A stretch of 64,000 nucleotides of DNA, taken from the NCBI GenBank assembly GCA_964405555.1, contig CAYOOB010000003.1, positions 24,606 through 88,605 on the forward strand. Reading direction: 5' to 3'. How positions within the stretch are numbered: position 1 is the first letter of the stretch; every line of letters starts with the position of its first letter. Made by a program: the position numbers and the translations under genes. The stretch is from an uncultured Lachnospiraceae bacterium (GTDB lineage: Bacteria; Bacillota; Clostridia; Christensenellales; UBA1242). Below are positions 40,917 through 58,369 of this stretch, in pieces. The notes beneath the pieces are model-generated. The model saw only the letters and a list, made by a program, of their open reading frames with translations, searched no databases and had not been told where the DNA came from.

Positions 40917-40992
40917 GACCTCGTAGTAAAACTGGATATTACGGCCCCCTCCTAAGGGGTTGTTCTGGGTTCGAGTCCCGGCGGGGTCACCA
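40917..40992 (+). tRNA. tRNA-Arg (anticodon CCT)
   Basis: Hand-folded cloverleaf. Acceptor gacctcg/cggggtc, D-stem gtaa/ttac, anticodon stem gcccc/ggggt, loop ctCCTaa. T-arm ctggg-ttcgagt-cccgg, discriminator A, encoded CCA. 76 nt. Confidence 0.85.
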
Positions 40993-40993
40993 A
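40949..40993 (+). repeat. attL: 45-bp direct repeat (3' part of tRNA-Arg from the anticodon loop to CCA+1)
   Basis: ctcctaaggggttgttctgggttcgagtcccggcggggtcaccaa, identical to 58325-58369. Confidence 0.9.
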
Positions 40994-41257
40994 TAGCAAT
41001 ACTTAATGGCTTGATTTTAGTTCTCAACATACTTCTACAAACTCAACCAATTCTAATATCCATATTAGAATTATTAACTTTAATATTGGGGGTGATTAGT
41101 ATAGAGAATAATAAATTGAGAAGAAATATCATCAACACACGCGGAGTATTAAGAATTTATTATCAAGTCTGTTAGGCATTGTTGTGTTGTGTGTTGTGCG
41201 GTGCAAATCCGCAATACTCCAAATATTATCAATGGTAGGCACTTAACCTACCATTTT

Positions 41258-41740
41258 TTATATAAAAATTTTTTCCATAACATCTATTGAGTTGTCAATA
41301 TCTTGACAATAGTGTGTGTAAATTTTTAGTGTTATATCACTGTTGGCGTGTCCTGCAAAATGGGGTTGATATTTAAGCCATGGGTATTTCTTTTCTACTT
41401 CATTTCTTTCGGACTTATTCAGTGTTTCAGGCTTAATAATTTCTCCTATTTGCATATAGCCCCAGATTACATGTTTGCCATTCTTATGATATTTATCATT
41501 GATAATGTCCTCATACCAGCCATAAAACAAAAATAAGTCGCCAACTCCCACTCCATTCTTTTCTAAATGAGCTTGAAAGCCTTTGATTTGCCCTAAACTA
41601 CCTTTAAAGTTTTCGCAATTAAAATAATTTTCTAATTGCGGGTCAAGGTGACAGTGAGTTTGTGGGTCAATGTGACAGTGAGTTTTTAAAAATGGTTTGT
41701 TTTGTTCTTTGACTTCAATAACTCTATTCAAAAATGGCAA
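41258..41740 (-). pseudogene. chimeric ORF: unknown N-terminal domain fused to the last ~32 codons of a tyrosine integrase (integrase remnant next to attL)
   Basis: The C-terminus ..AGHANSDITLKIYTHYCQDIDNSIDVMEKIFI carries the G-H-x(n)-Y-x-H catalytic-Tyr motif. It parallels the tail of the intact Int (..AGHSKALKTSDFYSHFIKNSDIHASEILNKIFE). The upstream 128 aa are unrelated and contain a 24-bp tandem duplication (41641-41688). Confidence 0.6.
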
Positions 41741-42052
41741 GTCACAAAAGGAGTTGCGACCTTGCCGTCATTTATAATTTGTATGAGGTGTAATATGAAT
41801 AAAAATGATGTTGTATTGAGAATAAGTCTAACTCAAATCAAACTCACACATTTAGGGTAATTTTTAGTTAAGGGTAAAAATAGCTATGTGAAAAAAGAGC
41901 ATACAAAAAAACATACTCTTTGGATGTAAGTTATTTTAAATATTTGACATATCTCATTTAAACGAATTATACTATCAACAAATATTTGAAATAACCAAAT
42001 AATTCAACATCTTTTGAAAGTTGTTTGACACATTTTCGGGACGGCGTTATTT

Positions 42053-42068
42053 CTCCTAAGCGGTTGGT
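42053..42068 (+). repeat. degenerate att-like site (14/16 match to the att core)
   Basis: ctcctaagCggttgGt compared with att ctcctaagGggttgTt, in the same orientation as attL/attR. Confidence 0.4.
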
Positions 42069-42387
42069 ATATCCACTTAATCCAGCGAAACGTTGATCTT
42101 CTCCAGAAAGTTGCAAAAAAACACATCTATATGGAGAAAATACATTGTTAAACTGTTAAATTTTGATGCGGTGTTCAAAATATTGGGGCGAATTTCTGAA
42201 ACTTAGGTGAACAAAATGAGAAGTCTTATTCATAAGTATCTTATTATGGAATTTGTGTTTTTACAGTAAATGATTTTTTTTATAAGTGTGTTTGATAAAA
42301 TTTTACAAAAAATTCATTTATTATATAAATTTGGAAGAAAAGTATGCTATAATGGTTTTAGTTTAATAAAGCGATAAAGGAGATTTT

Positions 42388-45300
42388 ATGCAAACGCTTC
42401 TAAATGATTTTTGTTTTTCAGAAGAAAAAGCTGGGCTACTTCTAGTTGATTTACCAACAGGAACTGGGAAAACTCACAATGCGGTTGAGTTTATATATAG
42501 AAATTATGAAAAAGTAAAAAATAAAATAATCTTTATTACTAATTTAAAGAAAAATCTTCCTATTGCCAAACTAAAAGAATTTTTTGAAAAGGACAATAGG
42601 CTTGATGATTTTGAAAAAGATGTATTGTTTATAGATAATAATGTCGATACACTTATAGATCACTTCAATGAAGTTGATAGTGGCAATAAAATCCCTTATG
42701 CTAAGTTTAATAAAAATGGAACCATATTCAATGTAAAACGCTGTATTAAAATTATCAATACATTGAAAGAAAGTTTAAACAATAAGAAACCAACCGATAT
42801 GGATGCATTTGTCTCAAAAGAAAATGCTTATTTTATGATTAATCAAGCAAGAGAAGATTTACGAGACAAATATGAAAAAGAGCTAAGAGAAGTTATTGAA
42901 GAAGTTCTGCGATTTGATAATGAAGGCAAACGAAGGTCTAAAGCACAAAAATTGGATTTAATAAAAAATGATCCAGATTACCAATGGATTTCAGTTCTCT
43001 ATCCAGCAGTAAACACAGACGATAAAAAGATTATATTTATGAGTACTGATAAATTTTTAGTTAGAAACTCTACAATCGTTGAACCATCATATAATATCAT
43101 TGACAACAAATCACTTCTTAACGAATCTATTGTTTTCATTGATGAATTTGATGCCAGCAAAGACATTATATTAAAGAACATCATAAATGAAAGTTTGGAT
43201 ACTAAAGTTAATATCATTGAGCTCTTTCGAATAATATATTCAGGTTTGGAAAACACTTCTTTTTCTAAGTTATTAACAGATGTTTCTGCAACATTAAAAA
43301 ATAAAATTGAGAAAAAAGAAAGAAAATATTACACACCAGATGAAATTATTGGAGAGTTTAGAGCAAGTGCGAAAGAGATAGCAGAAAAATATAATCTCGT
43401 AAATTATCATAAACTTGAGGAATCTGAAAAAGAGAGAGCAAATTTTCTTTTTCAAGACTACAAATTTCACACAATTTTAGGAGATGCTAAAAATTGCGTT
43501 TATCTAGACAATGATGAAGACTTTAAAATTAACTGGATAAAAAGAGCTAATGATATGAACATTTTGGAGAACCAAAATTTGTTTATGCTTTTGCAAGATA
43601 TTAAGTCTTTTTTAGCATATTTTCAAAATGGCATAAAGTTTATTGCAGATAACTATCGTAATCTAAAAAAAGAGCGTAAACAAGAAACAAATAATTTTTC
43701 TTATGAAGCATCAATTAAAACTGCACTTGCGGAATTTGGGATTGAAGGTAAATATTTGAATTATTTGACAAGTCAAATTATGAATACAAGAAAGGCTCGC
43801 TCTTATAAAATTGTTGATCTGAAAAGTGAACTAGACTTCTCGGTTTATGAAAAAGGGTTTAGATTCTACAATTTTATTGACAGTGATACTTTTGATACAC
43901 AGTCAAAAATCAATTTACTATCATTCAATATGTCGCCAGAGAAAATACTAATTTATTTATGTAGCAATGCCAAAGTTGTTGGAATTTCAGCTAGCGGTAC
44001 TCTTGAAACAGTAACTGGAAACTATGACTTGGGATATATAAAAAGGAAACTCGGCAAACTCTTTTACGAGATTGATGAAAAAGAAAAAGGAAGAATCAAT
44101 AATTTTATTATAAAACAACTAGGTAATTATAAAAATGTACAAATAGATATAGATAAATGCCAAATTACTAATAAAAACTACACTGATGTAATGTTAAAAA
44201 TTTTTGACGAACATATAAGTGAAAATATCTTAAACAAAATTTCGGAATATTCTACTGATGATTTTGTTAAAGCGAGATACTGTAAAATTGCTTATGCTAT
44301 TAACGAATTCTTTAGTCGCGGCATTAAGTCTTTTCTCTTTCTAACAAATGTGTCTATGAATAATAGTCTTGAGTTTAACTATAATTGCATAAATTATATT
44401 TTTGATATTTTAAAACCAAATGATTTAAGCAATGTATATTGTTATGCGTTAGAGGGATCTCTCGAAAAATTTGAAAATTTAAAACAAGCAGTAAAAGATA
44501 AACTTAAAAGTGGGAAACGGGTCTTTGTTGTTTCGACTTATCAAACATTAGGTGCCGGTCAAAATTTGCAATACGAGTATGATGACAATTATGAAGGTTT
44601 GTTAGAAACAATAAATGATAATACATATAGCAAAAAGCAAAAAGATTTCGAAGCATTGTTTTTAGATAAGCCTACTAATATGTTTGTTAATATGAATTCC
44701 AATCCAAATGAGGAACAACTTATTAAGTTTATTTATCAAGTAAAATGCTTAGAGGAAACAGGTTATTTCGATGTTGAAGAAGCTACGAGAGAAATTAAAA
44801 AAGGAATTAAAATACTGTACCATGCCTCTTCACAAGGTATTTCAACTCCCAGGTCAAAACATATTTATATGCACACTGCAAAGATAATTTTACAAGCGAT
44901 TGGAAGAATATGCCGTACAAATAATAAGAATAAAAATATATTTATTTCATTTGATTGTCAAATGGAATATGATTTAGCATATTGCAAAAATGAGCTTTTA
45001 AAAAGACCGATGAATTATGAATTGAAAGAGCTTCTAAATAAATGTGAGAATGTAAAAGAGGAAGTTGATAATTCGATTTTCAAAATCAATAATTCAAAAA
45101 TAAAAAAGAATTCAGATAAGATAGATTCTTTGTTGCATTTCAAATCCAATACTGATATTTCAAAATGGGAAGAATTGAGAGATATTGTATTAAAATATCC
45201 TTATGATAATGAAGGAATTCACAATGAATATGACATCTATTGTGAACTTAAAGAACCGAGTAGTTACTATTATTATAATAAGGATCAGAATGGAGAATAT

Positions 45301-45849
45301 AATATAACTTACGAAAAAGTTAATGATTATTGTATATCTGCAGATTTTGCAAATCTAAAAACCTTAATGTCAATCAAAGAAATAAAAACCTATTTTGAGG
45401 ATATGGGATATGCTACAACTCTCGAAAAATCCTCTTATATTTTATTACCTAATGTTTTTACGCGAATTTATCTTGGAGCCTTAGGCGAATCTGTTGGTGA
45501 ATATTTAATTAATAGGTTCCTTAATCAATACGATTTAAAACTTGAAAGAATAAGAGATGTCAATAGATACGAAAAGTATGATTTTGTTTTTGATAATGAT
45601 AAATATGTGGATTTTAAATATTGGAATGGGAATTTTGATAAAGATAGACAGAGAGAAGTTGAAAGATGTATTAGAAAACTAAATGAATGTGATGGAAAAT
45701 ATGGTTTCATAATTAATATACTAAAACCTAAAAATTATGATCCAAAACAATATGTTAGTCCAGATGAAAGGCTTACAATAATTCCATATCTATATGATCC
45801 TGAAACAAAAAAATGGAACCTAAAAGATCTTGAAAAATTGTTACATTAA
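42388..45849 (+). CDS. SF2 helicase (DinG/XPD-like motif set) fused to a C-terminal PD-(D/E)xK-like nuclease domain
   Basis: Motif I DLPTGTGKT (aa ~21), motif II VFIDEFDAS (aa ~250), motif III GISASGTL (aa ~532). Motif V-like VSTYQTLGAGQNL and motif VI LQAIGRICRT (aa ~835). C-terminal GALGESVGEY..YEKYDFVF..YVDFKYW (E...D...DxK, aa ~1030-1080). AAAGGAG RBS. Confidence 0.7.
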   Translation: MQTLLNDFCFSEEKAGLLLVDLPTGTGKTHNAVEFIYRNYEKVKNKIIFITNLKKNLPIAKLKEFFEKDNRLDDFEKDVLFIDNNVDTLIDHFNEVDSGNKIPYAKFNKNGTIFNVKRCIKIINTLKESLNNKKPTDMDAFVSKENAYFMINQAREDLRDKYEKELREVIEEVLRFDNEGKRRSKAQKLDLIKNDPDYQWISVLYPAVNTDDKKIIFMSTDKFLVRNSTIVEPSYNIIDNKSLLNESIVFIDEFDASKDIILKNIINESLDTKVNIIELFRIIYSGLENTSFSKLLTDVSATLKNKIEKKERKYYTPDEIIGEFRASAKEIAEKYNLVNYHKLEESEKERANFLFQDYKFHTILGDAKNCVYLDNDEDFKINWIKRANDMNILENQNLFMLLQDIKSFLAYFQNGIKFIADNYRNLKKERKQETNNFSYEASIKTALAEFGIEGKYLNYLTSQIMNTRKARSYKIVDLKSELDFSVYEKGFRFYNFIDSDTFDTQSKINLLSFNMSPEKILIYLCSNAKVVGISASGTLETVTGNYDLGYIKRKLGKLFYEIDEKEKGRINNFIIKQLGNYKNVQIDIDKCQITNKNYTDVMLKIFDEHISENILNKISEYSTDDFVKARYCKIAYAINEFFSRGIKSFLFLTNVSMNNSLEFNYNCINYIFDILKPNDLSNVYCYALEGSLEKFENLKQAVKDKLKSGKRVFVVSTYQTLGAGQNLQYEYDDNYEGLLETINDNTYSKKQKDFEALFLDKPTNMFVNMNSNPNEEQLIKFIYQVKCLEETGYFDVEEATREIKKGIKILYHASSQGISTPRSKHIYMHTAKIILQAIGRICRTNNKNKNIFISFDCQMEYDLAYCKNELLKRPMNYELKELLNKCENVKEEVDNSIFKINNSKIKKNSDKIDSLLHFKSNTDISKWEELRDIVLKYPYDNEGIHNEYDIYCELKEPSSYYYYNKDQNGEYNITYEKVNDYCISADFANLKTLMSIKEIKTYFEDMGYATTLEKSSYILLPNVFTRIYLGALGESVGEYLINRFLNQYDLKLERIRDVNRYEKYDFVFDNDKYVDFKYWNGNFDKDRQREVERCIRKLNECDGKYGFIINILKPKNYDPKQYVSPDERLTIIPYLYDPETKKWNLKDLEKLLH

Positions 45850-45927
45850 AAATAACTTCTTAGAAAATTTTTATAAATTTTTTGAATTGATATGTTATAA
45901 TTCTAATATATTTAGTGAGGATGAAGC

Positions 45928-46902
45928 ATGCTAAAAACCTTTTTTGATTTCTGTTCTGGAATCGGTGCTGGCAGACTCGGACTTGAGTATTGCGGGTTAA
46001 CTTGTGTTGGTCATTCTGATACAAGCAGGCTGGCAGACACAACATACAGACTGTTACATAATGCATCAACAGACAAAAACTATGGAAATCTTAAGAAACT
46101 TGGAAAAGACAATTTGCCAGATTTTGATTTGCTAATAGCTGGCTTCCCTTGTCAAACTTTTTCAGTAATTGGGAAACAGGCAGGATTTAGTGATGACCGA
46201 GGTCAAATTATTTTTCATTTGTCAAGAATACTTAGAGAAATGCAGCCGAAGTGTTTTATTTTAGAAAATGTAAAAGGATTAGTATTGCATGATAACGGTA
46301 AAACCATCAAAAAAATTATTGAAGAATTGAATAGATCTGGATATTCTGTTGCCTACAAAGTGATTTCAAGTTTGAATTGTGGAGTTCCTCAAATGAGACA
46401 AAGAGTCTACTTTGTTGGCATTAGAAAGGATATTTGTAACAGTATAAATGACTTTGCTTGGCCGAAGGATATAGCAAAACCAGAATTAAACGATTTTTTA
46501 CCAGATCGTAAACAGATACAACCTGAGTTTTTGAACATTTTAATTCATTATTTAAAAAATTCAACAAATAACGGGAAATATACAGTACAAGATTTGCAAT
46601 GCATGAATGGAAAAATTCTAGATACAAGGATGAACGACCTAAGGATCTATGATGGAAAAGTTCCTACTCTCAGGGCTCAACGCGATGGCATATATTATGT
46701 TTTTAATAATACAATTTATCAACTAACAGGATGTGAAGCATTAATATTGCAGGGCTTTTCCCAAGAATATGTGGATAGAGTTAGGGATAAAGTTTCTGAT
46801 AGGCATTTGCTGATGCAAGCAGGGAATGCAATGACGGTAAATGTAATAACATTGATTGGACAATGTTTAATAAATTATCTAAAGAAAAAGGAGAACAAAT
46901 AA
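45928..46902 (+). CDS. DNA (cytosine-5)-methyltransferase, specificity unknown
   Basis: Motif I FFDFCSGIGAGRLG, motif IV GFPCQTFSVIGK, motif VI ENVKGL, motif VIII QMRQRVYFVG, motif X AGNAMTV. Confidence 0.9.
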   Translation: MLKTFFDFCSGIGAGRLGLEYCGLTCVGHSDTSRLADTTYRLLHNASTDKNYGNLKKLGKDNLPDFDLLIAGFPCQTFSVIGKQAGFSDDRGQIIFHLSRILREMQPKCFILENVKGLVLHDNGKTIKKIIEELNRSGYSVAYKVISSLNCGVPQMRQRVYFVGIRKDICNSINDFAWPKDIAKPELNDFLPDRKQIQPEFLNILIHYLKNSTNNGKYTVQDLQCMNGKILDTRMNDLRIYDGKVPTLRAQRDGIYYVFNNTIYQLTGCEALILQGFSQEYVDRVRDKVSDRHLLMQAGNAMTVNVITLIGQCLINYLKKKENK

Positions 46903-47693
46903 TGGCAATTTGGAAAGATTTTGAAATAGAGTGTACTAATTATTTAAATTCACAATTTGGTAAATTCGCAAAATTTACTCATCTTGGAGATAGTGATTCT
47001 ACAGTTGCAGACATAAAAGTAAACACTAAAAATAAAAAAGAGTTTTATATTGAATCGAAACATTCTCCAGCACAGTGTGGACAATTTGTTTTAATTCCAA
47101 ATATTAAAACTCATAAATTTGATTATAGTTCGTTAAATGTAAACAAAATAAATAAGTACTCTTCACAGATAATAGAACATATGAATAAAAATTTTAAAGA
47201 ATTTAAGGAAGCTGGTACAGCTGGCAAAGAAATTAAATTTGAAGGGTGTGAGAATGTCTTCTGTGGTTGGATTATTGATTATCATAAATCGAAAAATGTA
47301 AAATTTTTCATGACCAACAATAATATTATACTTCCGATAGAACAATTTGCAGAATTTTTCACAGTTACAGCTAAATATCGTATAAAACGTAGCGGTTCAT
47401 CTCCTGTTGGGAACTCAAATATTATAAATGTCAAAAATTATGTTAAAGAACATTTCAATATTCAACACATTGAAGTTGTAGGAGATAAAATATTTGTTAA
47501 ATCAAATGAAGAATTACATAATAAAAGATTTGTGATAAACGGATATGAGTATATGTTGTCGAAGCGTGATGGAGTTTACGAAATAAGAAAACTATCTAAT
47601 ACTTTTAACGCGAATGTTATATTTTCTATTGAATTAAAACCTGGAAAGCAGGGGCTAACAGTTTCGCAATTTATTGCTTTATTAAATTTATAA
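46902..47693 (+). CDS. putative type II restriction endonuclease (PD-(D/E)xK-like)
   Basis: Its ATG overlaps the MTase stop (TAATG), which implies translational coupling. The N-terminal FEIEC...VADIKV...EFYIESKH fits E...D...ExK. No family-level identification. Confidence 0.45.
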   Translation: MAIWKDFEIECTNYLNSQFGKFAKFTHLGDSDSTVADIKVNTKNKKEFYIESKHSPAQCGQFVLIPNIKTHKFDYSSLNVNKINKYSSQIIEHMNKNFKEFKEAGTAGKEIKFEGCENVFCGWIIDYHKSKNVKFFMTNNNIILPIEQFAEFFTVTAKYRIKRSGSSPVGNSNIINVKNYVKEHFNIQHIEVVGDKIFVKSNEELHNKRFVINGYEYMLSKRDGVYEIRKLSNTFNANVIFSIELKPGKQGLTVSQFIALLNL

Positions 47694-47981
47694 TATACTC
47701 TCCAAAAAGCTGATATACTTTTTAACCGCAAATTTATATGTGGATAGATAATATTTACCAATTGGTAGGTCTCCAACAAGGAGGTTTGCCATTTTTTCAT
47801 TTTGTCCAGAATTTTTGAATAGATCAAGGAGGCTTTCACATTTGTCTTTTCTATATTCTTCATCTATGTCACAATCTTTTATAGCATGTTCAATACGTTT
47901 TATCCTGGAAACATAATCGCTACAAAGTTTTTTGGGAGTGTTGTTTTGTTTTAAATAACGAACAAAGTCAAACTCAAGCAT
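47688..47981 (-). CDS. 97-aa protein translationally coupled to the M.HhaI-like gene; function unknown
   Basis: Its ATG overlaps the MTase TGA (ATGCTTGA). Its 3' end overlaps the convergent 46902-47693 gene by 6 nt. Confidence 0.5.
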   Translation of the reverse strand: MLEFDFVRYLKQNNTPKKLCSDYVSRIKRIEHAIKDCDIDEEYRKDKCESLLDLFKNSGQNEKMANLLVGDLPIGKYYLSTYKFAVKKYISFLESIL

Positions 47982-48960
47982 TGTCGTGACCTACTTTCTT
48001 GCCGATTTCGATTGCGATGTATTGCAAAACGTCAATAACAACAGAATTACCAAATTGTTTATATGCCTGATTTTTGTTTTTAGCCATTTTGTAGGTGTCT
48101 GGGAATCCCATTAATCTTGCACATTCACGAGGATGTAGCTTGCGTGGTCTACCATTAACCAAATAGCCTCCAGTTTTAGCGAAAACACCACCGCCATTAG
48201 CAGACAAAGTAATTGCTATGCCTTTTGTACTGTAGATTCGTTCACCTTGGCCACCTTTGTTTACAATTCCCAGTCTAATAGACTTGTTACTAAATTGGGA
48301 ATCATCTTTTACATTGTAATAAGTATCTGATCTTTCAACATACAAATTTGAAACTATTGACTCATCATTTAGCAAGAAATCTTGAACGTGTTTAGATAGC
48401 GGGAATGGTTTTGGGAAATTAAAACGACCACAATTTAATTCTTTCCTAAAGCAAACCATGTATATTCTCTCTCTTTTCTGTGGTATGCCATAGTCTGTTG
48501 CATTTAAGACTTTGTAATCAAAGGAGTAGCCTAATTCTTCCATGGTGGCTTTCACAACTTGCAATGTTTTACCGTTATCGTGAGCGGCAAAATTCTTAAC
48601 ATTTTCCATAAAGACAACTTTTGGTTTTTTACATTTTACTATTCTTGCAACATCAAAAAATAGAGTGCCTCGACTATCTTCAAAACCTCGTTGTTTTCCA
48701 CTTATAGAGAATGCCTGGCATGGAAACCCAGCACATAATATATCGTGATCGGGGATAGTATTTTCATCCACCTTGGTAATATCGCCCTCTGGTATATCTC
48801 CAAAGTTTTCATTGTAGACTGTCTGTGCAAATTTGTCCCATTCGTTGGAATACACACATTTTGCTCCTAAAGATTCCAGAGCTAACCTAAAACCACCTAA
48901 TCCTGCAAATAAATCAATAAATGTGCAATATGAAAGAGTCTTCTCTTTTATTTCGATCAT
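47974..48960 (-). CDS. DNA (cytosine-5)-methyltransferase, M.HhaI-like (predicted GCGC specificity)
   Basis: From MIEIKEKTLSYCTFIDLFAGLGGFRLALESLGAKCVYSNEWDK through GFPCQAFSISGKQRGFEDSRGTLFFD, ENVKNF, QKRERIY and QFGNSV, it tracks the M.HhaI sequence as I recall it. This includes the target-recognition loops RLGIVNKGGQGERIYSTKGIAITLSANGGGVFAKTGGYL. Start set at 48960 (GGAGGT RBS). Confidence 0.85.
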   Translation of the reverse strand: MIEIKEKTLSYCTFIDLFAGLGGFRLALESLGAKCVYSNEWDKFAQTVYNENFGDIPEGDITKVDENTIPDHDILCAGFPCQAFSISGKQRGFEDSRGTLFFDVARIVKCKKPKVVFMENVKNFAAHDNGKTLQVVKATMEELGYSFDYKVLNATDYGIPQKRERIYMVCFRKELNCGRFNFPKPFPLSKHVQDFLLNDESIVSNLYVERSDTYYNVKDDSQFSNKSIRLGIVNKGGQGERIYSTKGIAITLSANGGGVFAKTGGYLVNGRPRKLHPRECARLMGFPDTYKMAKNKNQAYKQFGNSVVIDVLQYIAIEIGKKVGHDNA

Positions 48961-50160: not shown

Positions 50161-50575
50161 CCCCAGGGGTGGTCAAATCTCTACGAGATACACGATCAGA
50201 ACGGGCGGGCAGCCGCACGCAAAAATTCGCGAAATCAAAAATCAAAAAATAATCAAAATTTTTATTGAAAATATGCTTAAATCACTTATTTCGCTAGCAA
50301 AAATGTACTTTTTGATTATTTACTTGAAATCAAAAATAATTAAATTTTAGTTAAACAAAATCAAAATTTAACCGGCAATTTTAATTTTAGCGACACGATT
50401 AAACGGGTTTTTTAGAAAGGTTTTGTGATTTACGATAATTTACTCAAAACAAATGCTTTCGTGCGACTGTGAGCGAATTTAAGGCAAATTAAAGCAAGAT
50501 TACAAAATTACAAGAAAACAAAGTTTCAAGGATACAAAGATACAAGAAAAATCTTTTATTTTATTCGGCTGTTCA

Positions 50576-50630
50576 CTGGACTTTATTGTGCTTTTGCGGT
50601 ATGTGTTTGATAGCAAAAGCACAAGTCCAG
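50576..50630. promoter_or_regulatory. long imperfect inverted repeat just upstream of xis
   Basis: ctggactttattgtgcttttgc (50576-50597) and gcaaaagcacaagtccag (50613-50630). 18 paired positions with a 3-nt bulge. It ends 27 nt before the xis ATG. Confidence 0.5.
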
Positions 50631-50656
50631 TTGGAAACAGCACACTGGAGGTATCA

Positions 50657-50875
50657 ATGCAAAGAATAAGGACTATCACTGAGACATTACAAATGTTGAA
50701 GAAAGAAGATCCAGAAACTTGTTTAAGCGAGTTTCTAATAAGGAAACTTGCAAACAACTACAAAATTCGTTCCATCAAAACTGGCAACAAAGTACTGATA
50801 GACTACGATTCACTATTGGCATTTCTTCAAAGCAAAAGTTATGAGTTGCCAATGGAACAAATCATTATTGAATAA
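50657..50875 (+). CDS. xis: excisionase-like small DNA-binding protein
   Basis: 72 aa with a GGAGG RBS, ending 11 nt before int. Contains an HTH-like segment (CLSEFLIRKLANNYKIRSIKTGNKVLIDYDSLLAFL). The call is mainly positional. Confidence 0.5.
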   Translation: MQRIRTITETLQMLKKEDPETCLSEFLIRKLANNYKIRSIKTGNKVLIDYDSLLAFLQSKSYELPMEQIIIE

Positions 50876-50886
50876 GGAGAAAAGTT

Positions 50887-52278
50887 ATGCCATGTATTAA
50901 AAAGAATGTGTTAGACACGGGTGCGATTTCATATCGCATCCAAGTCAAAGCGAAGAATGAAAGGACTGGAAAGTTTGAGGCGAAAGTGATGACTTGCAGG
51001 AAGCCAGCAGAACTCACAGAAAGGCAATATAAACGAGAACTGCAAAGAATAGCATTTGAATTCGAAGATAAGTTCCGCAAGTCTATGAATGGCTTGCTTG
51101 CCGTAGATAATGACATATTATTCATAGATCATGCCAACAAGTGGTTAGAAAAAGTTAAGAACACAAAATCGCTCAACTATTATGTTAAAGGTAAGGACAG
51201 TATCAAAAAGTTCTATGCTTACTTTGGGAATATTAAACTAAATCAAATCACACCAGTTATGGTCCAAGGGTTCTTGGATGAAATGAGTTTTAAAAAGGTT
51301 GAAAAGAAAAGTGCTGTGATGATAAAAGATATAACTCAATATCTTAAATCACACTGCATTAAACTTGTAGATGCAACAAACAAAACTGGCATATCAAGAT
51401 CAATATTCTTCTCTGCAACAAGTGGCCATGGAATAAGAGTTGAAAATGCTGAGAGAATATGCCAAGAGTTGGGGTTAAATTATGACGAGTATTTTAAGAC
51501 TGAAATTGTCTCTCATCCTTACGCAAAAGAAACAATACTAAAACTTAAACGAACATTAGCAACAATTCTGGCAGAGGCTAAGAGACAAAGATTGGTTGAG
51601 CATAACTTTGCGAGCAGAGATTATATCGCACCAATACAAGGCTACAAGAAAGAAATACAAATCTTAAACGACAAGGAGGCAAAGATACTGGCACAGTATT
51701 TGGACACTGAACCAAATCCTCGCTGGAAGATTGCTCTATTAACTATCTTGTTTATGGGGTTAAGGCGTGGCGAACTCGCTGGACTTGAATGGCAAGACAT
51801 TGATTTTGAAAACAAAACAATGACAATTCAAAGATCGGTGCAAGATATTGTTGGATTTGGACTTATAACAAAAGATCCAAAAACCGAAAACTCAAAACGA
51901 ACAATATCAATGCCAGATAAACTTATAACTTACTTGAAAGAATATCAAGCATGGTGGGACAATCAAAAACATTACTTGGGCGACCGCTGGAAAGATACTG
52001 ATAGATTGTTCTGCACAGAAGATGGTAAAACAATTTCACCAGGACTATTTAGAGTGTGGTTGCAAAAGACACTGATAAAAGCGGGACTACCAAAAGTATC
52101 TCTCCACTCACTTCGTCACACCAATATAACATTGCAACTAATCGCTGGCGTAGATATGAAAACGGTGTCTGCTCGTGCTGGACATAGCAAAGCGTTAAAG
52201 ACAAGCGATTTCTATAGCCACTTTATAAAGAATTCAGATATCCATGCAAGTGAAATATTAAATAAAATTTTTGAATGA
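50887..52278 (+). CDS. int: tyrosine-type site-specific integrase
   Basis: Catalytic residues in order: LRRGELAGLEWQDIDF (Arg), HSLRHTNITL (H-x-x-R), AGHSKALKTSDFYSH (His...Tyr). The N-terminal arm-binding-like domain is SYRIQVKAKNERTGKFEAKVMTCRKP. Confidence 0.92.
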   Translation: MPCIKKNVLDTGAISYRIQVKAKNERTGKFEAKVMTCRKPAELTERQYKRELQRIAFEFEDKFRKSMNGLLAVDNDILFIDHANKWLEKVKNTKSLNYYVKGKDSIKKFYAYFGNIKLNQITPVMVQGFLDEMSFKKVEKKSAVMIKDITQYLKSHCIKLVDATNKTGISRSIFFSATSGHGIRVENAERICQELGLNYDEYFKTEIVSHPYAKETILKLKRTLATILAEAKRQRLVEHNFASRDYIAPIQGYKKEIQILNDKEAKILAQYLDTEPNPRWKIALLTILFMGLRRGELAGLEWQDIDFENKTMTIQRSVQDIVGFGLITKDPKTENSKRTISMPDKLITYLKEYQAWWDNQKHYLGDRWKDTDRLFCTEDGKTISPGLFRVWLQKTLIKAGLPKVSLHSLRHTNITLQLIAGVDMKTVSARAGHSKALKTSDFYSHFIKNSDIHASEILNKIFE

Positions 52279-52442
52279 TTATTAAATAATAATTAAAAAA
52301 CTTTGAGCGTTGTTAAGATTTACAGTAAAATAATTAGAATTGAGATTCGTAGATCTCAGACAACTTGAAATTTAGTGAAAATTCTTGTATAATAATACAA
52401 ATAGTGTTATTAGGTACAAACATTGTTGTAATGGAGGAATTA

Positions 52443-55400
52443 ATGAACGAATCAAATGAAAGGGTACAGTTTATTTCTGATTATATTATCTCTTATGAAA
52501 ACAAAATTAAAATATTAAATAAAGAAGGGTTGTTTGATGCGGCAAAATTGTTTGAACTTTTTGCAATCAAGGTTTGTTCTTTATACTTTAAACAAGAATT
52601 TTTTAACCTAAATGTTAATACGTTTCAATATCCTTGTGTTGATTTAATATCTGAAGATAAGAATTTATTTGTTCAAGTTAGTACAGTTCAAGATGTACCA
52701 ACGAAAATTAAAAATACTTTAGAATCTATCAGAGATTCTAAACATGAAAACATAAAGGATATAAAGAACGTAATTTTCTTTTTGCTTAGCAATGATAGTA
52801 TCAACAATGTAGTGGATTATAAAGGTGAGAACAAAATTGGTAATTTTGAATTTATTAAAAAAGAAAATTTAATAACAACACGAGATGTCATTTATAAGGC
52901 AGAAGTGGATTTAGATTTTCAGTTAGGACTATATGATATTCTAAAAAAGGAAGAAGAAAGTGTTAAAACTAATTTAAAAAGTTTTAAAGAGGCATTAAGA
53001 GATAGTGCTACTTGTATTTCTTCTATTGAAGATAAGATCAACGGAGAATATAGTATTGATTTGTCTGAATATATAAATAATATTAGAGAACACAACCATA
53101 AAAATATTTTAATTGAAGGGAAAGCAGGCAGCGGGAAAACGGTTCTTTGTAAAAAGTTAGTTGAACAAGAAGAGATAGTGTTATTTGCAAGAGCTGAGAG
53201 ATTTTGTGAAGAAACTAATATAAACAGTATTTGGCATTTTAATTTAGATGAAACGCTAGAATATTTAAATAATAAAAAGATAGTTATATTTATAGATGCA
53301 TTAGAGTTTATTGCCGACAATAGAACTAAACTTGACATGTTAATGATGCTATATGAACGAACAAAAGATTATAGAAACGTATTTATAATTGTGTCTTGTA
53401 GAACTAGTGATAAATCAGCATTTATAAAATTGCAAAATGAATACTCTATTGTTAATTATGAGGTTGCAAACCTGAATCCAGAAATGCTAAAACCATTGGC
53501 GGATAAGTATTCAATCATAAGAGATATGCAGAATAACGATTTATACTCTGAGCTTTTAGGATCTCCATTTTACTTAAATATTATTATTTCAAATATGTCA
53601 ACACTGCAAAATATTTCAGACGAAAATCAACTTAGAGAATATATTTGGCAAAAGGTTATTAGTTTAAATGATAGTAATATTAGAGATGCTGTTAATAAAA
53701 TCGTTTTTGAAAGAGCTAAGAATTTTCTTGTTGGAGTACCTTGTGATGAAATAGATCCCGAGATTCTAAAAAAATTAGAATCAAATAATATAGTTACGTG
53801 TAATGATAAACGTGTCAGATTAAAGTATGATATTTTTGAAGATATATGTTTTGAGCAATATATCGACAAAGTTTTTTATGAATGCAAAGGTGATTATAAA
53901 ATATTTTTTGATAAATTAGAAAATATGGGTAGGTGTATATATAGACGATACCAAATTTGGATTGAAAATAAATTATTAGCAAAAAATAATAGAGACAAAT
54001 TTATTTATAGTTTATTATTTTCAAAAACTTTGCCTGATGAATGGCACAAACAAACTGAGATAGGGTTAGTTAAGTCAAGACATAGTGAAAGTTTCTTTAT
54101 TGAGAACGCGAATACTTTAATTAAAGAAAATCTTTTATTAGAATTTGTAAATATTACAAATTTGTATGGCTTTGAACTCGATGTACCTTTTTCTAGGGAC
54201 ATTTATTTAACCCTAAAAAATGCGGGAATTGGTAGAAAATGTTTAATTAATATTATAGCCGAAAACAATTTATATAAAACATGGACAGAGCCAGTTCAAC
54301 CATTAGAGAAGCTTGTAATTGACTATTCCCAAAATAAAGATTATGATGAAAGTACTGCAATAAATACAACAAAAATACTTGCTTATCTAATTGACGAAAT
54401 ACTGTTAAACAAGCCAAAAGAAAAATATTGGAGAGTTTTTGATTGTATAAAAGATAAACTAAGGGCTGTATACAAACTCGGAAACTATTGTAAAGATTGG
54501 ATTAATAATTTCTTCAACAAAGTAATAGATATGTTTAAGGGGCAAGATGACGATAAAGTAAGATTTGCTGAGGATGTAATAGAGAATATAATTAGTTATG
54601 AAAATTGTATATTGTCAAAATACATTCCTAATGAAGTATGTAACATTTTTGAATTATATTATACATTTAAGCGTAAACCTTCTAAAAATAACTTTTATAT
54701 CCCAGAAAACGAAAATAAAATATACTCATTGTATGGTTTGAATAAAAATGCAGAAAGTTATGACCATGAATCATTTAGGAAAGCCCCTCAAAATAGTAAC
54801 TTCGTATATATGTATTTTTGTTTTAACGGACTTCATGGACTAAAATGGATGGTTCAGTTTATTAATAAACTTGTGTTAAACTTTAAAAATAATAATAAAG
54901 GGTTACCAGAATTTACTGTTTACTTTGCAGAAACAAATAAAGAAAAGAAATATTTTGGATATTCGGATATGTGGCTTACAATGGTTCAAGAACATCAAGT
55001 TCCTACGCTTATTGCCGATATTGTGTATTCATTTAAAGAACTAATTAGGTTTTATATGAAAAATAATGACTTGTCAGTCACTCAAAAACTTAAAATTGCA
55101 AACAATATAAAAAATTACATTTATGAAAATTCGAACAATATTATATTGTTATCAATTATTTCAGAAGTTGGTATGGAATTTGAGCAGTTGTTACCAGGAT
55201 ATGCAATAGATTTAATTTCAAATATGGATATTGTTATCAATGATTTAACAAGATATTCTTTACAAATGCCTAATCCTTTAAGGAATAAGTTGGAAAATGA
55301 AATTATGATATCCGCGGGATTACCTTTTGGATTGAAACACAGGTACAAAGCGGTCAATAACAATATAAGTTTGCGAGAGTATGCCCGCAACTGCCAAATT

Positions 55401-57188
55401 GAACATGGAAAAAATATAAGGAAAAAAACTTTTGATATAATTGATTATTTATATAGAACAATTCCTGATGATCTTGAAAATTGTGAAAGGTATTTACAGC
55501 TCCAACAAATAGACATGAGAAAAGCCGAGGTACATAAGATTAATGATTCAACAATAGAGTCAATAACTGGTATGGCTAAACAGAAATCTGATAAACAAGA
55601 GAAATTAAACAGCAAATATATACCTCTGGTAAATAAATGTAATGACTTAAACAACAAAATAAAAGATAATACCATCATTCTTGATGACTATATCTCTTCT
55701 ATCAATTTATTGTTGTCTTATAAAGATGATCCATTATATTTTTCAATTGAGAATAATTTATTTGCATATATTTCTTTGGCTTTAAATGATCCGAATTTAG
55801 ACATTGTTAAGAGAGAAGAATATTGTAAATTGTGGATTGAAAATTCAAGTAAGTTAACTTTCAATGGATCAATGCTTGATTCTGAATTATTTACAATTTT
55901 GTTTAAACAAATTAACTTAGAAATTAATGGTATCTTAAAAAACGATATCAAACAAATTCTATTAGATCTAATTCTTTATGAAGGTCCTAATGGCAAGATT
56001 AGACAAATTGCGGTTTACGCAAAACAATATCTGAGAAATAATATACAAATTGCGACTTCTATTTTTTATACGATTTTAGCATTAGCAAAAGATGAAATGA
56101 ACCATCAAAAATATAACGCAAAGTATATAATAGAAAATAAATTAGAGGACAATTTTGTATTTAAACCTAATATGCAAGCGAAATTGGTTGGAGTAGATCA
56201 ATTTATTGAAAATGATGGTAAAAAGCTGTATTGTTCAAATGCTCAACAAATAATAAAGAAATATTTATACGATGAACAACAATTAGATTTAGACGACTTT
56301 AATTTATATGATTATGATATACATTTACTTAGCTATGCTCTTAACTGCGGGGTGACTCTAGATGGATCTATTTTTGATGACATTGTAAGACAATATATTG
56401 AATTTCTAATTCACTTTTGGCATGAAAACAAAGGGAACTATAGCAACCACGAAATTATCGGCGTGTATGAATTATATGAAGTACAGGAGTTTATACAAAG
56501 AGAAATATTGAGCAATTTAAATCAGACCAAAAAAGTATTAAGCTTAATGTTTGATAACATCGACTATTCTTTGTTTGAAAAAGAAACCGTAGAATTTTAT
56601 CTTGAAGTATTTGGTTGTTTATTGTCCTATTACTTTGATTCTTATGATAATGCTCAAAAAAGACAAAATTGTGAAGAAATAATAGAATTATTAGCAGAAA
56701 AAATTAATGCTATAAACGACGTAAATTTACGTATAAATTTAACAAAATGTTTGATGTTTTGTTTAACTCGATATGGTGGATCGGGTGATTGGAGCAACTG
56801 TAAAGCTTCGTATTCATATAAGGATAAGCTGTTCCTAAATAAAGTGTTCGCTAATTACGGATATTATCATTTGGGAGAATTGTTGGAAGTCATTTATAAA
56901 ATGCATTTAGATGAATTATTACCAGAAATTCTATTATCTTTAAAAGAATCGTTTGAAAAAGCACCACGAGAAAGGAAATATGAATGGGATACAGAATCTT
57001 TATATAAGATAATTCTTGATAAATCATTTATAATAGACTCCATAATAAATAAATCATTCTTTAAATTTGCCAGAGATATAAAAGAAGATAATGATTTAAT
57101 TGCTGCTTTTGAGTATATTTTAAACGTATTAGTAGAATATGGAAATGAAAAGGCCGCCGTCATTCTTGATGAATTTCGGATACACTAG
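52443..57188 (+). CDS. giant (1581-aa) P-loop NTPase: SMEK-like N-terminal domain + STAND/AAA-like NTPase + ~1250-aa uncharacterised C-terminal region
   Basis: Walker A IEGKAGSGKTVLCKKL (aa ~226), Walker B KIVIFIDALEF (aa ~280), sensor-like FIIVSCRTSDK (aa ~314). The N-terminal LFDAAKLFELFAIKVCSLYF..NLNVNTFQYPCVDLISEDKNLFVQVSTVQDVPTKIKNTLE resembles the SMEK-type domain of conflict-system NTPases (from memory). Start set at ATG 52443 (GGAGG 5 nt upstream). Confidence 0.65.
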   Translation: MNESNERVQFISDYIISYENKIKILNKEGLFDAAKLFELFAIKVCSLYFKQEFFNLNVNTFQYPCVDLISEDKNLFVQVSTVQDVPTKIKNTLESIRDSKHENIKDIKNVIFFLLSNDSINNVVDYKGENKIGNFEFIKKENLITTRDVIYKAEVDLDFQLGLYDILKKEEESVKTNLKSFKEALRDSATCISSIEDKINGEYSIDLSEYINNIREHNHKNILIEGKAGSGKTVLCKKLVEQEEIVLFARAERFCEETNINSIWHFNLDETLEYLNNKKIVIFIDALEFIADNRTKLDMLMMLYERTKDYRNVFIIVSCRTSDKSAFIKLQNEYSIVNYEVANLNPEMLKPLADKYSIIRDMQNNDLYSELLGSPFYLNIIISNMSTLQNISDENQLREYIWQKVISLNDSNIRDAVNKIVFERAKNFLVGVPCDEIDPEILKKLESNNIVTCNDKRVRLKYDIFEDICFEQYIDKVFYECKGDYKIFFDKLENMGRCIYRRYQIWIENKLLAKNNRDKFIYSLLFSKTLPDEWHKQTEIGLVKSRHSESFFIENANTLIKENLLLEFVNITNLYGFELDVPFSRDIYLTLKNAGIGRKCLINIIAENNLYKTWTEPVQPLEKLVIDYSQNKDYDESTAINTTKILAYLIDEILLNKPKEKYWRVFDCIKDKLRAVYKLGNYCKDWINNFFNKVIDMFKGQDDDKVRFAEDVIENIISYENCILSKYIPNEVCNIFELYYTFKRKPSKNNFYIPENENKIYSLYGLNKNAESYDHESFRKAPQNSNFVYMYFCFNGLHGLKWMVQFINKLVLNFKNNNKGLPEFTVYFAETNKEKKYFGYSDMWLTMVQEHQVPTLIADIVYSFKELIRFYMKNNDLSVTQKLKIANNIKNYIYENSNNIILLSIISEVGMEFEQLLPGYAIDLISNMDIVINDLTRYSLQMPNPLRNKLENEIMISAGLPFGLKHRYKAVNNNISLREYARNCQIEHGKNIRKKTFDIIDYLYRTIPDDLENCERYLQLQQIDMRKAEVHKINDSTIESITGMAKQKSDKQEKLNSKYIPLVNKCNDLNNKIKDNTIILDDYISSINLLLSYKDDPLYFSIENNLFAYISLALNDPNLDIVKREEYCKLWIENSSKLTFNGSMLDSELFTILFKQINLEINGILKNDIKQILLDLILYEGPNGKIRQIAVYAKQYLRNNIQIATSIFYTILALAKDEMNHQKYNAKYIIENKLEDNFVFKPNMQAKLVGVDQFIENDGKKLYCSNAQQIIKKYLYDEQQLDLDDFNLYDYDIHLLSYALNCGVTLDGSIFDDIVRQYIEFLIHFWHENKGNYSNHEIIGVYELYEVQEFIQREILSNLNQTKKVLSLMFDNIDYSLFEKETVEFYLEVFGCLLSYYFDSYDNAQKRQNCEEIIELLAEKINAINDVNLRINLTKCLMFCLTRYGGSGDWSNCKASYSYKDKLFLNKVFANYGYYHLGELLEVIYKMHLDELLPEILLSLKESFEKAPRERKYEWDTESLYKIILDKSFIIDSIINKSFFKFARDIKEDNDLIAAFEYILNVLVEYGNEKAAVILDEFRIH

Positions 57189-57213
57189 CGACAAAAATTA
57201 ATATATTCAATAA

Positions 57214-57245
57214 AAAGACGACTAAATAAAGCCGTCTTTTTTTTG
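57214..57245 (+). terminator. terminator after the giant NTPase gene
   Basis: aagacg (57215-57220) / cgtctt (57233-57238), followed by T8. Confidence 0.5.
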
Positions 57246-57252
57246 TATAAAT

Positions 57253-57298
57253 TGGTGTGAGTAAGAGGATTTGAACCTCCGACCTGTCGCTTAGGAGG
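57253..57298 (-). other. orphan 3' half of a different tRNA-Arg(CCT), inverted relative to the resident tRNA (fossil att site)
   Basis: The minus strand reads cCTCCTAAgcgac-aggtc-ggagg-ttcaaat-cctct-tactcac-a-cca. That is an anticodon loop, 3' anticodon stem, variable loop, complete T-arm, 3' acceptor and CCA. No complementary 5' half follows. Confidence 0.7.
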
Positions 57299-57388
57299 TA
57301 AATGTAATATCCTTAAAAACTTTGTTAAAACACTTGCAAAAGATTTTTATTTAAGTTAAAACACAAGACAACTTGAAAGGAGTTAGAT

Positions 57389-57754
57389 ATGAAAGCAAAG
57401 TTCCTGTGCGATATTTCTAATGCTCGATTGCTTAGGAATAAATTAGATAAAGACGAAGGTTTAGAATGTGAATATGTGATTGAACGAGTTGTGTATTTAT
57501 CCAAGCGAGACTTTATTCCTTTTCGTGAGCATCTTATGGAAGAAACACCGTTTGTGTCTTGTCACAAGGAAGATATGTTTATCGATAAGCAAGGCATTTG
57601 GCATGTTTTGATGTTCTGCTGTTTGCAGTCGGATATAATCTTGCTTGTAAACAGTGACAGCAAAGATTATGCCAAATATTGTAGCATTATTTCAAATGGA
57701 GGTGAGGAAGTTGAACCACGTTTTACAACTAGTCAGAGATATACTAGAAAATGA
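57389..57754 (+). CDS. hypothetical 121-aa protein (island right end)
   Basis: AAAGGAG RBS and coding-like composition. Confidence 0.45.
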   Translation: MKAKFLCDISNARLLRNKLDKDEGLECEYVIERVVYLSKRDFIPFREHLMEETPFVSCHKEDMFIDKQGIWHVLMFCCLQSDIILLVNSDSKDYAKYCSIISNGGEEVEPRFTTSQRYTRK

Positions 57755-57950
57755 AAAAAGAACTGCCGAGGAGCAGTTGCAACTAAATAAAATCTGTGAA
57801 CTTGAAGACAAGTTCATTAAAGGCTTTTCAAAAGAAAAGTGGAAGGAATATTTTGATTTAGACTTAGAAAAAGGTCAACTCCATAGCCTTGACCTTGATA
57901 AGGTTATTGAAATTACCTATAACATTTGCAAAGAGATTTTTAAATCGTAG
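57696..57950 (+). CDS. hypothetical small protein (start uncertain: ATG 57696 or TTG 57711)
   Basis: GGAGGTGAGG precedes the TTG at 57711. It overlaps the preceding ORF. Confidence 0.3.
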   Translation: MEVRKLNHVLQLVRDILENEKRTAEEQLQLNKICELEDKFIKGFSKEKWKEYFDLDLEKGQLHSLDLDKVIEITYNICKEIFKS

Positions 57951-57966
57951 AGGTTTGGTATGTGGG

Positions 57967-58131
57967 ATGCTGTTAATGTTGTCAGAAATCATTTCTGTCG
58001 TTTCTACACTATCAATGGAACAATATCGGCTGTATCTAAAAGCCTGGTATGAAATATGCGAATTTAGAAAAATTGAAGTTGATGAGTATATAAAAGTTGC
58101 AAATAAGTTATTTGTTGATATGTTTAAGTAA
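57967..58131 (+). CDS. hypothetical small protein (54 aa)
   Basis: Internal ATG of track ORF 57889-58131. No clear RBS. Confidence 0.25.
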   Translation: MLLMLSEIISVVSTLSMEQYRLYLKAWYEICEFRKIEVDEYIKVANKLFVDMFK

Positions 58132-58324
58132 GAACCTTCAAATTGTACCCAAACGGCAAAACTGCTCAAAAAGTCACCATTTCTGTACCGTGGAGTTGAA
58201 AGGATTTGCGTTTATGGTATAAAAGTTAGAAAAGTTGGTTGGAGTTTTGTAAATTGCGTGATATAATGTTTGTGAGAATTGCAAAAGTGAGCAATAGAAA
58301 AGTTAATTTAACTATATTTTATTG

Positions 58325-58369
58325 CTCCTAAGGGGTTGTTCTGGGTTCGAGTCCCGGCGGGGTCACCAA
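58325..58369 (+). repeat. attR: displaced 3' part of tRNA-Arg(CCT), 45/45 identical to 40949-40993
   Basis: The preceding sequence (..tatattttattg) cannot form the tRNA 5' half. Confidence 0.9.

Follow-up and report, generated by a model that had tools for sequence, protein, structure and literature searches.

A segment of about 17.4 kb, lying in a 64,000-nucleotide stretch of DNA from an uncultured Lachnospiraceae bacterium (contig CAYOOB010000003.1; the whole stretch is called the window here), begins at a tRNA-Arg(CCT) gene, ends with an exact copy of the 3' part of the same gene, and carries an integrase together with several defence genes. The question raised by this locus is whether the segment is one mobile element or an assembly of several, and whether an island that looks intact could still leave the chromosome. 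In an earlier note on this DNA it was described as a composite island integrated in the tRNA gene; the insertion and the composite nature were borne out, while two internal attachment (att) sites and an inverted xis-int block had been overlooked. The segment 40994-58369 is probably a composite defence island, in which two elements were accreted site-specifically and one large internal inversion followed. The insertion and the composite nature are held with high confidence, and the exact inversion endpoints and the integrase as catalyst of the inversion with moderate confidence.

Only one tRNA gene was called in the window by ARAGORN, a complete and functional-looking tRNA-Arg(CCT) at 40917-40992 on the + strand (55.6 bits with the Rfam tRNA model), of which the acceptor stem pairs at 7/7 positions. 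The last 44 nt of the gene plus the next base make a 45-mer, CTCCTAAGGGGTTGTTCTGGGTTCGAGTCCCGGCGGGGTCACCAA, which occurs in two exact copies on the + strand, 40949-40993 and 58325-58369 (45/45 identical). The repeat cannot be extended, with CCCC versus ATTG before the two copies and T versus A after them. No third copy was present in the window at up to 3 mismatches, none was obtained in 100 shuffles, and a search with parts of the 45-mer added none. A dispersed multi-copy 45-mer had been named as refuting in the earlier note; only two copies were found in the window. The left copy begins at the anticodon-loop heptamer CTCCTAA (40949-40955), and the attL-type left boundary is made of tRNA 5' half, CTCCTAA and 3' half. 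The attR-type right boundary is made of P arm, CTCCTAA and host tRNA 3' half, then the MarR flank. A tRNA 5' half stands beside the left copy alone, and the two open reading frames (ORFs) beginning MFWVRVPAGSP (40960 and 58336) are translations of the repeat, both as described before. Direct repeats derived from the tRNA 3' part are found at both ends, as in a tRNA-integrated island. No half-site tRNA pseudogene was called in the window by Rfam at a permissive threshold, the other Rfam matches being at chance level, and no contrast in GC content was seen between the island and its flanks.

An intact tyrosine integrase of 463 aa (50887-52278, +) was identified in the island, with a catalytic domain (Pfam PF00589, 1.2e-18), PF14659 and a phrog_1 match at 4e-58; the HxxR and terminal Y motifs are visible (...LHSLRHT... 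and ...DFYSHF). Homologues of this integrase numbered 543, many being 77-80% identical and a few 89-96%. In at least five other metagenomic lineages (L030, L032, L034, L035/36 and L045/47, where L-numbers denote related loci compared with the window), integrases 77-96% identical adjoin att sites derived from tRNA-Arg(CCT), and the chromosomal flanks are unrelated. Homologues were thus found at the same target with other flanks; a sixth locus, L038, shows the P-arm end only. The integrases of L030, L032, L034 and L035/36, 77-80% identical, converge on tRNA-Arg(CCT). In L047, a tRNA-Arg 3' half comes after the family integrase (88%), where the family element borders a second element, whose own integrase converges on the full tRNA. 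The order at this middle junction is family arm, class-II 3' half, heptamer, and the arm of the second element with its integrase.

Along the direction of the integrase gene, the canonical element of the family starts with a tRNA-Arg(CCT) 3' fragment (-), a P arm of ~190-250 nt and variable cargo. It continues with orf98 (-), orf121 (-), sometimes a 77-aa ORF, variable cargo again and a replication-type gene (orf217-221 or primase-helicase), and ends with xis and int (+), variable cargo, a conserved arm with terminator, and tRNA-Arg(CCT) (-). A complete element of ~13 kb was present in L035/36. The closest relative of the window is L038 (contig CATKAE010000275.1; int 95.5%, xis 98%, orf221 86%, orf121 92%). 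L045 and L047, on contigs from different samples, overlap in gene content and seem to represent a single element seen twice. The genes int and orf121 are on opposite strands in L035/36, L038 and L045/L047, which are three independent complete or near-complete relatives.

Primase-helicase genes are carried by the cores of L041, L045 and L047. A module of orf77, orf121, orf98 and P arm (L041-L046, L047) is shared with cores holding primase-helicase and HTH_17, which are missing in L038 and in the window, and an integrase is visible for this core group in L045/L047 only (88%). The att-proximal module has been either exchanged between cores or conserved across cores.

A tRNA gene also appears to be carried by the elements themselves. 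A full class-II tRNA lies beside the family arm in L030, L032, L034 and L035, and it is 77/77 identical between L030 and L032 despite their different hosts. About 130 nt past it, CTCCTAA joins the 5' half of a class-I tRNA to a conserved arm, GTACCGACTTG. The regions concerned are L030 13062-13300, L032 12874-13110, L034 16374-16610, L035 13482-13720 and L047 18590-18995. The class-I 5' half and the displaced 3' fragment at the other end of the element can pair with each other, at 7/7 acceptor positions in L035, and at 6/7 with a perfect anticodon stem in L045/L047. This pairing suggests that canonical integration would split the host tRNA at the anticodon loop, with a replacement tRNA brought by the element. 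The canonical junction arm of the family (CTCCTAAGTACCGACTTG...) is absent from the window, where just the 3' half of the class-II tRNA is kept.

At the right end of the island, orf121, orf98, P arm and 45-mer are collinear with L038, L041 and L045 at 82-88% DNA identity, in the canonical orientation relative to the tRNA. The small genes orf121 and orf98 of this P-arm end (57389-57950, +; phrog_21303) are 65-92% and 75-90% identical, respectively, in L035 and L038-L046. The family P arm (58139-58324, +) could be aligned with L035, L038, L039, L041 and L045, and it carries the outward-facing extended -10 candidate TGATATAAT at 58259-58267 proposed in the earlier note, whose TATAAT is invariant in 6/6 aligned family P arms. 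The composite island in tRNA-Arg(CCT) is supported from two sides, as integrases of the family are found at the same tRNA in other lineages and the right end in the window is homologous to the end of their elements.

The ~190-nt P arm is 82-83% conserved between elements with different neighbour genes, and its invariant TATAAT points across the att core to MarR.

The orientation of the remaining core does not follow the canonical layout. In the window int (+) and orf121 (+) are co-oriented, unlike in every canonical relative, and the whole block of orf221, xis, int and STAND gene is inverted relative to the right end and to the outer repeats. At the end of this block a conserved element arm with a terminator hairpin (57213-57244) is found at 57189-57252 (+), 81-87% identical to L032, L034 and L035; in relatives an arm of this kind adjoins the element-borne tRNA. 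It is followed by J2 (57253-57299, -), an inverted 3' half of a foreign class-II tRNA-Arg(CCT), 47 nt in length and named C* here, with its anticodon loop end at 57291-57297; the 81-87% identity to L032, L034 and L035 extends through C*. C* is of class II, with T loop TTCAAAT and acceptor TACTCAC, versus T loop TTCGAGT and acceptor CGGGGTC in the host tRNA and the outer repeat. It pairs with the host 5' acceptor strand at 2/7 positions, versus 7/7 for the repeat copy, which fits an element-borne copy that entered at a distal att site and not at the tRNA itself. The tRNA homology of C* ends at the anticodon loop, the same boundary as that of the 45-bp repeat.

Beyond C* lies the orf121-upstream region (57300-57388, +), which in canonical relatives follows attI, a short att-like scar inside the element, and contains a decayed class-I tRNA D-arm motif, GTAATATCC. 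Positions 57281-57398 match L038 9893-10010 with 78% identity over 120 nt (E 1e-19), and match the sequence that immediately precedes orf121 or the 77-aa ORF in L038/L045 with 78-82% (E 1e-19 to 2e-23). In these two relatives the attI scar reads ...GTGGATAGAGCTATCGC TTAGGAG TCCGTTATAATATC... and is inverted relative to the outer sites of the element. One flank of attI is like a class-II tRNA D-arm with anticodon stem, and the other like a decayed class-I D-arm, which explains why GTAATATCC follows C* in the window. J2, as aligned with the relatives, is a hybrid, with the element arm and the full C* on one side and the orf121 side of attI on the other.

The region 57300-57330 had been considered as a decayed local tRNA 5' half or a second P arm; both were rejected, for it is conserved orf121-upstream sequence inside L038/L045.

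If J2 is one product of an inversion, a reciprocal product should be present. The heptamer CTCCTAA occurs 9 times in the window, and besides the three known sites just the one at 42053 (+) is intergenic with att-like flanks. This site, J1 (42053-42076, +), is made of CTCCTAAGCG followed by GTTGGTATATCCAC and is the proposed left inversion junction. Its 10-nt core CTCCTAAGCG is identical to the core of J2, and its right flank GTTGGTATATCCAC resembles ATAGCTCTATCCAC, the other side of the L038 attI, at the same offset; this score was reached by 34/20000 random windows (p ~0.002). On its left arm, an outward promoter-like site is comparable to the conserved outward TGnTATAAT of the family P arms. 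The assignment of 42053 as the reciprocal product is moderately supported and is the weaker half of the evidence. Two inverted, identical 10-nt cores, at 42053 (+) and 57288-57297 (-), thus flank the segment that contains int, as recombination sites do in a recombinase-driven invertible switch.

The stretch between the tRNA and J1 (40994-42052, ~1.06 kb) could be read from its layout as the remnant of an older integrative element. It contains a 264-nt arm with a terminator hairpin (41231-41255), a fused ORF, non-coding DNA and a second arm, whose outward promoter-like site is TTGACA-18-TATACT (41944-41973). The fused ORF encodes 160 aa (41258-41740, -) and combines a truncated Nmad3 (~41336-41671) with the C-terminal tail of a tyrosine integrase (~41261-41358). 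The tail, ...AGHANSDITLKIYTHY...KIFI, is similar to the C-terminal ends of the integrases in the window and in L047. An integrase remnant had been claimed earlier and is indeed present, but only as this tail of ~33 aa fused to a truncated gene. The Nmad3 fragment (Pfam 7e-23, profile positions 63-169 of 247) is 56% identical to a full-length Nmad3 beside the tRNA in L004. What lies between the tRNA site and J1 is thus an att-bounded, decayed element without a working integrase, as in the cis-mobilizable elements (CIMEs) discussed below.

A 24-nt tandem duplication, TTGCGGGTCAAGGTGACAGTGAGT, was observed in the Nmad3 fragment at 41636-41683, with two copies 92% identical that encode THCHIDPQ and THCHLDPQ. 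In L004 the full-length Nmad3 (3711-4580, 289 aa) converges on the tRNA 3' end at a distance of 82 bp, with no integrase there, and Nmad3 may be old cargo at a hotspot of this clade. An identification of the remnant with the second element of L047 was rejected, the integrase tails being only weakly alike (E 0.01) and the arm similarity not significant.

Four att-derived sites are thus found in the island, at 40949 (+), 42053 (+), 57291 (-) and 58325 (+), and a tandem order is obtained only after the proposed inversion has been undone. Their arms are paired as follows. At 40949 the tRNA 5' half meets the host-type 3' half (C) and the old arm; at 42053 the old P-type arm meets the attI flank; at 57291, in reverse, the orf121 side of attI meets C* and the family arm; at 58325 the family P arm meets C and the MarR flank. 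This pairing forms a 4-cycle of four parents (attB, old attP, family attP and attI), so a minimum of three recombinations is needed. With the inversion undone, the order becomes C*, arm, STAND(-), int(-), xis(-), orf221(-), orf81(-), M2, orf97, R(-), M1(-), DdmD-like(-), attI, orf121(+), orf98(+), P arm and 45-mer, and the cargo on the attI side is divergent from orf121, as in L038, L041 and L045.

The history proposed from these joints has three steps, the first two of which may have come in the reverse order. In the first, an older element would have integrated into the tRNA, with an attP that had the same 45 nt as the host 3' half, so that the tRNA remained complete while the 3' half native to the host was pushed to the right; if so, the 45/45 identity of the outer repeat is explained by the old attP copy being the same as the host tRNA 3' half. 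This element would then have decayed to the ~1.06 kb seen now, with arm, integrase tail fused to truncated Nmad3, and second arm. In the second step, to which the homology of both ends to relatives points, a family element of ~16.3 kb would have integrated at the distal att site of the older one, bringing P arm, orf98/orf121, left cargo, orf221, xis, int, right cargo and an arm with the foreign tRNA-Arg 3' half. The tRNA was kept functional, on this account, because the family element entered the distal site and not the tRNA. In the third step, of which J2 shows one junction and J1 gives moderate support to the other, the middle att junction would have recombined with the inverted attI upstream of orf121, inverting ~15.2 kb (42060-57290) and yielding the hybrid junctions J1 (42053) and J2 (57253-57299). 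Each of the recombination joints would coincide with CTCCTAA, the heptamer of the anticodon loop. This inversion would have put onto the + strand the DdmD-like gene, M1, R, orf221, xis, int and the STAND gene, with all large genes becoming co-directional with the surrounding genes, and the DdmD-like and R-M (restriction-modification) operon would lie downstream of the promoter-like site of the old arm.

For mobility, this history would have clear consequences. The family integrase and the xis-like ORF are intact, but the two arms of the family element are now inverted, and the element would be unable to excise unless the segment flips back. Recombination between the inverted arms would flip the 1-kb orf121 segment rather than excise the element, and the whole 17.4 kb could be excised only if the integrase uses the arm of the old element. 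Short of a return flip of the 15-kb segment, the island is probably fixed where it stands. That attI and the element junction site serve as an integrase-driven invertible switch, toggling ~15 kb, is a doubtful proposal. If it were true, the ~15-kb flip would lock or unlock excision by setting the arms inverted or direct, and would place the DdmD-like/R-M operon downstream of the outward promoter at 41944-41973, so that defence cargo and mobility would be toggled together.

The host locus was also compared with that of relatives. The synteny of spoIVA, membrane proteins, mscS ... MarR, DegV, rplM and rpsI is kept in L001. In L001, L004 and L007 the interval from mscS/spoIVA to MarR contains a single tRNA-Arg(CCT) without partial copies, and the island genes are lacking there, save the full-length Nmad3 of L004. 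A genome scan with DegV returned only uncultured Clostridia metagenome-assembled genomes (Christensenella and Borkfalkiaceae labels; rabbit and mouse gut), the best at 83% identity, and a metagenome scan with MarR returned only matches of 45% identity.

Several observations weigh against the history of accretion and inversion. The tRNA (L001 7179-7254, L004 4662-4737, L007 9344-9419) is on the opposite strand relative to MarR-DegV in these three nearest relatives, which implies a further history of rearrangement at the locus that the model leaves unexplained; with the tRNA opposite in all three, there is no clean empty site in the available relatives. Exact look-ups of MarR, DegV and L13 gave no conspecific contigs, and so no strain-level empty site. 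The attI site is present in L038-40 and L045/46 and absent in L035 and L041-44. The evidence at J1 amounts to ~24 nt, and its left arm had no significant similarity to the P_B arm of L047 (1696/20000). It is the positions of the joints that point to the integrase as the apparent catalyst of the inversion.

Two other histories, each given a low probability, account for part of the same evidence. In one, another copy of the family element in circular form, with core and STAND cargo, would have integrated through its attP into the attI of a resident element, so that the block was inserted and not inverted. J2 is exactly what attP x attI predicts on one side, and a weak P-arm-like similarity exists at 49107-49138. 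However, the other junction should then be direct, with a second P arm and probably a second orf121 and orf98, whereas P arm and orf121 are single in the window; the TTAGGAG at 49228, rejected as a junction, lacks flanks of att type and serves orf81 as its ribosome-binding site; and J1, the sole other att-like site with matching flanks, is inverted.

In the other, similarly improbable history, the ancestral tRNA stood on the - strand just upstream of MarR, the element integrated there canonically with int toward MarR, and the tRNA 5' half and the P-arm end were moved by later rearrangements. The tRNA(-) of L001, L004 and L007, 138-2140 bp upstream of MarR, would agree with this, as would the block of int, STAND gene, arm and C*, oriented toward MarR as predicted, and the decayed class-I D-arm motif after C*. 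Yet the motif is internal to the element beside orf121 in L038/L045, so it is not a local host tRNA; more recombinations are required than by accretion plus inversion, and the intact tRNA(+) with an integrase tail is left unexplained.

A single element with one integration, an int natively in mid-island and no rearrangement is very unlikely, for although the exact 45-bp repeat bounds the whole segment and there is no third copy of the 45-mer, int is inverted against orf121 and P arm in three canonical relatives, a foreign tRNA 3' half with family arm lies inverted inside the island, and a separate integrase tail adjoins the tRNA; these already contradict it. Equally little credence is given to an assembly artefact, or homologous instead of site-specific recombination. 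The relatives are all metagenome-assembled, but the junctions share just 10 nt, too short to mislead an assembler or for RecA-type recombination, and the heptamer at which every att site of the family switches partner is precisely where the two joints lie.

The composite island carries the gene content stated in the earlier note, with xis-int, R-M genes, a helicase-nuclease and a giant NTPase, and its role would be to provide three defence modules: an orphan DdmD-like protein, type II R-M comprising one endonuclease and two C5 methylases, and a SMEK-STAND Avs4-like sensor. The DdmD-like helicase-nuclease (1153 aa; 42388-45849, +) matches PADLOC DdmD at 4e-33 and PDB DdmD 9ix4 at 3e-45. No DdmE partner adjoins this gene, which lies between the J1 intergenic region and the M1 methylase, and it may be an orphan or differently partnered relative of DdmD. 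For the R-M system, a C5 cytosine DNA methyltransferase, M1 (45928-46902, +; Pfam PF00145 6e-65; TIGR00675), overlaps by 40 nt with an adjacent type II restriction endonuclease, R (46863-47693, +; PADLOC REase_II 1e-56). A second C5 cytosine DNA methyltransferase, M2 (47974-49083, -; Pfam PF00145 8e-101, domain from aa 54), is convergent to them, its true start being probably near 48960-48981, and a 97-aa ORF without family match lies downstream of it (47688-47981, -). One endonuclease with two C5 methylases is an arrangement typical of enzymes with asymmetric sites. The third module is a SMEK_N plus STAND NTPase protein of 1607 aa (52365-57188, +), which matches SMEK_N of Pfam at 1e-20 and PADLOC Avs4 at 1e-30 over residues 207-1361; no PDB relative was found for it. 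It takes up the cargo position that separates int from the att arm.

The conserved core of the family element is located between these modules. Upstream of xis-int are orf81 and orf221 (49244-50160, +), of which orf221 is 44-86% identical in L030-L038 and has a weak match to phrog_428, a replication initiator (1e-3); the two genes are probably a module for replication or regulation. A conserved non-coding region (50161-50587) separates orf221 from xis. It is 78% identical to L038 and contains 24-nt direct repeats (50495-50550), making it a candidate origin or operator. The small xis-like ORF (50588-50875, +; probable start ATG 50658) is 64-98% identical in relatives, where it always adjoins int; it has no family match, and its putative xis function is read from this position.

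Outside the island, the flanks named in the earlier note were recovered, with mscS (38868-39995) on the left, and MarR (58641-59105), DegV (59391-60239) and rplM-rpsI (61621-62474) on the right; spoIVA is found further left of mscS in the window. Between mscS and the tRNA, a 207-aa ORF (40145-40768, -) without family match has no counterpart among the 26 related loci, and may be more variable DNA at the hotspot.

Cargo of similar kinds but different content was found in relatives. L030 carries type I R-M with a recombinase and Kiwa KwaA; L032 a NACHT protein, a kinase, an SLFN-type helicase and M.C5-ASCH; L034 UvrD-PD-(D/E)XK, an N6/N4 methylase and HATPase_c; L035 a DndB-like protein, a D12 methylase and AAA_21; L038 three C5 methylases, two HNH proteins and a Fic protein; L041 and L045 Hachiman (HamA-helicase), R-M and reverse transcriptase. 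The family is a carrier of defence islands aimed at tRNA-Arg(CCT), with at least two variable slots, widespread and unnamed, in uncultured gut Clostridia. The reading as a composite island is strengthened because varied defence cargo is carried by this family to tRNA-Arg(CCT), and this is strong independent support.

In L030 the left cargo (1-7372) is a type I R-M system in which a small tyrosine recombinase separates two hsdS genes of opposite orientation, an arrangement resembling a phase-variable specificity shufflon. In L035, ~8 tandem copies of a ~19-nt unit, ACATCTAGAATAAAAAAT, are found directly outside the left att fragment (400-545).

Parts of the proposed history have counterparts in known systems. 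In Streptococcus thermophilus, accretion of a CIME with an integrative and mobilizable element (IME) or an integrative and conjugative element (ICE), related to ICESt1/ICESt3, leaves a decayed element that keeps its att sites and a second one integrated at the distal att (PMC5704250). The island resembles such CIME-IME tandems (PMC5704250) in being a composite bounded by direct repeats, in using the 3' part of the target gene, and in having an older element without integrase. It is unlike them in that the middle att junction would have been split by an inversion with attI, which would keep simple excision from resolving the array. For the inversion itself, the integrase of pTN3 in Thermococcales, which makes inversions between att or tRNA sites (PMC5495485), offers a parallel. 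In both cases a tRNA-targeting tyrosine integrase of an integrated element would invert DNA between inverted copies of its site; pTN3 differs in that its inversions are megabase-sized and concern archaeal chromosomes, and its integrase can also act at low sequence specificity, whereas the inversion of the island stays internal and is read from sequence only.

As for the class of the element, Pfam scans of all sizeable ORFs gave no relaxase, coupling protein or type IV secretion domain, hence no conjugation or mobilisation genes as in an ICE, and no structural, packaging or capsid-redirecting genes, as expected of a prophage or satellite, were seen among the PHROG and Pfam matches. The island had no megablast match in plasmid and phage collections, and only distant relatives of the integrase, 27-31% identical, were found in IMG/VR. 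The element may be an IME or a satellite. P4-like elements and those of the phage-inducible chromosomal island type are defence hotspots on integrative elements and phage satellites. A conserved core of int, xis and replication genes with variable defence slots is also a likeness to the hotspots and satellites, as in a survey of chromosomally integrated elements (PMC10201445).

Among the modules, the 1153-aa protein aligns with DdmD of the Vibrio cholerae DdmDE system over most of its length; unlike in that system, DdmE, the Argonaute-like guide protein, does not adjoin it, and an R-M operon follows. The match to the Avs4 profile (1e-30) spans ~1150 residues and takes in the STAND NTPase and the long C-terminal region, whereas the N-terminal domain is SMEK_N. 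Characterised Avs4 proteins have an N-terminal nuclease.

For this locus, the outcome is a corrected annotation of the window, with boundaries, four att-derived sites, two elements and three defence modules. The island is an ordinary kind of mobile element, a tRNA-integrated, integrase-borne defence island built by accretion; the internal site-specific inversion is unusual, not unprecedented. For the family, splitting of the host tRNA with an element-borne replacement would, if true, be an unusual way to keep the host viable. The inversion is invisible to a repeat search alone, and could be reconstructed only through comparison with relatives, as the internal att sites were found only via homology to them and not by the 45-mer search. 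A perfect repeat together with an intact integrase need not mean that an island is mobile, for a site-specific inversion may immobilise it.

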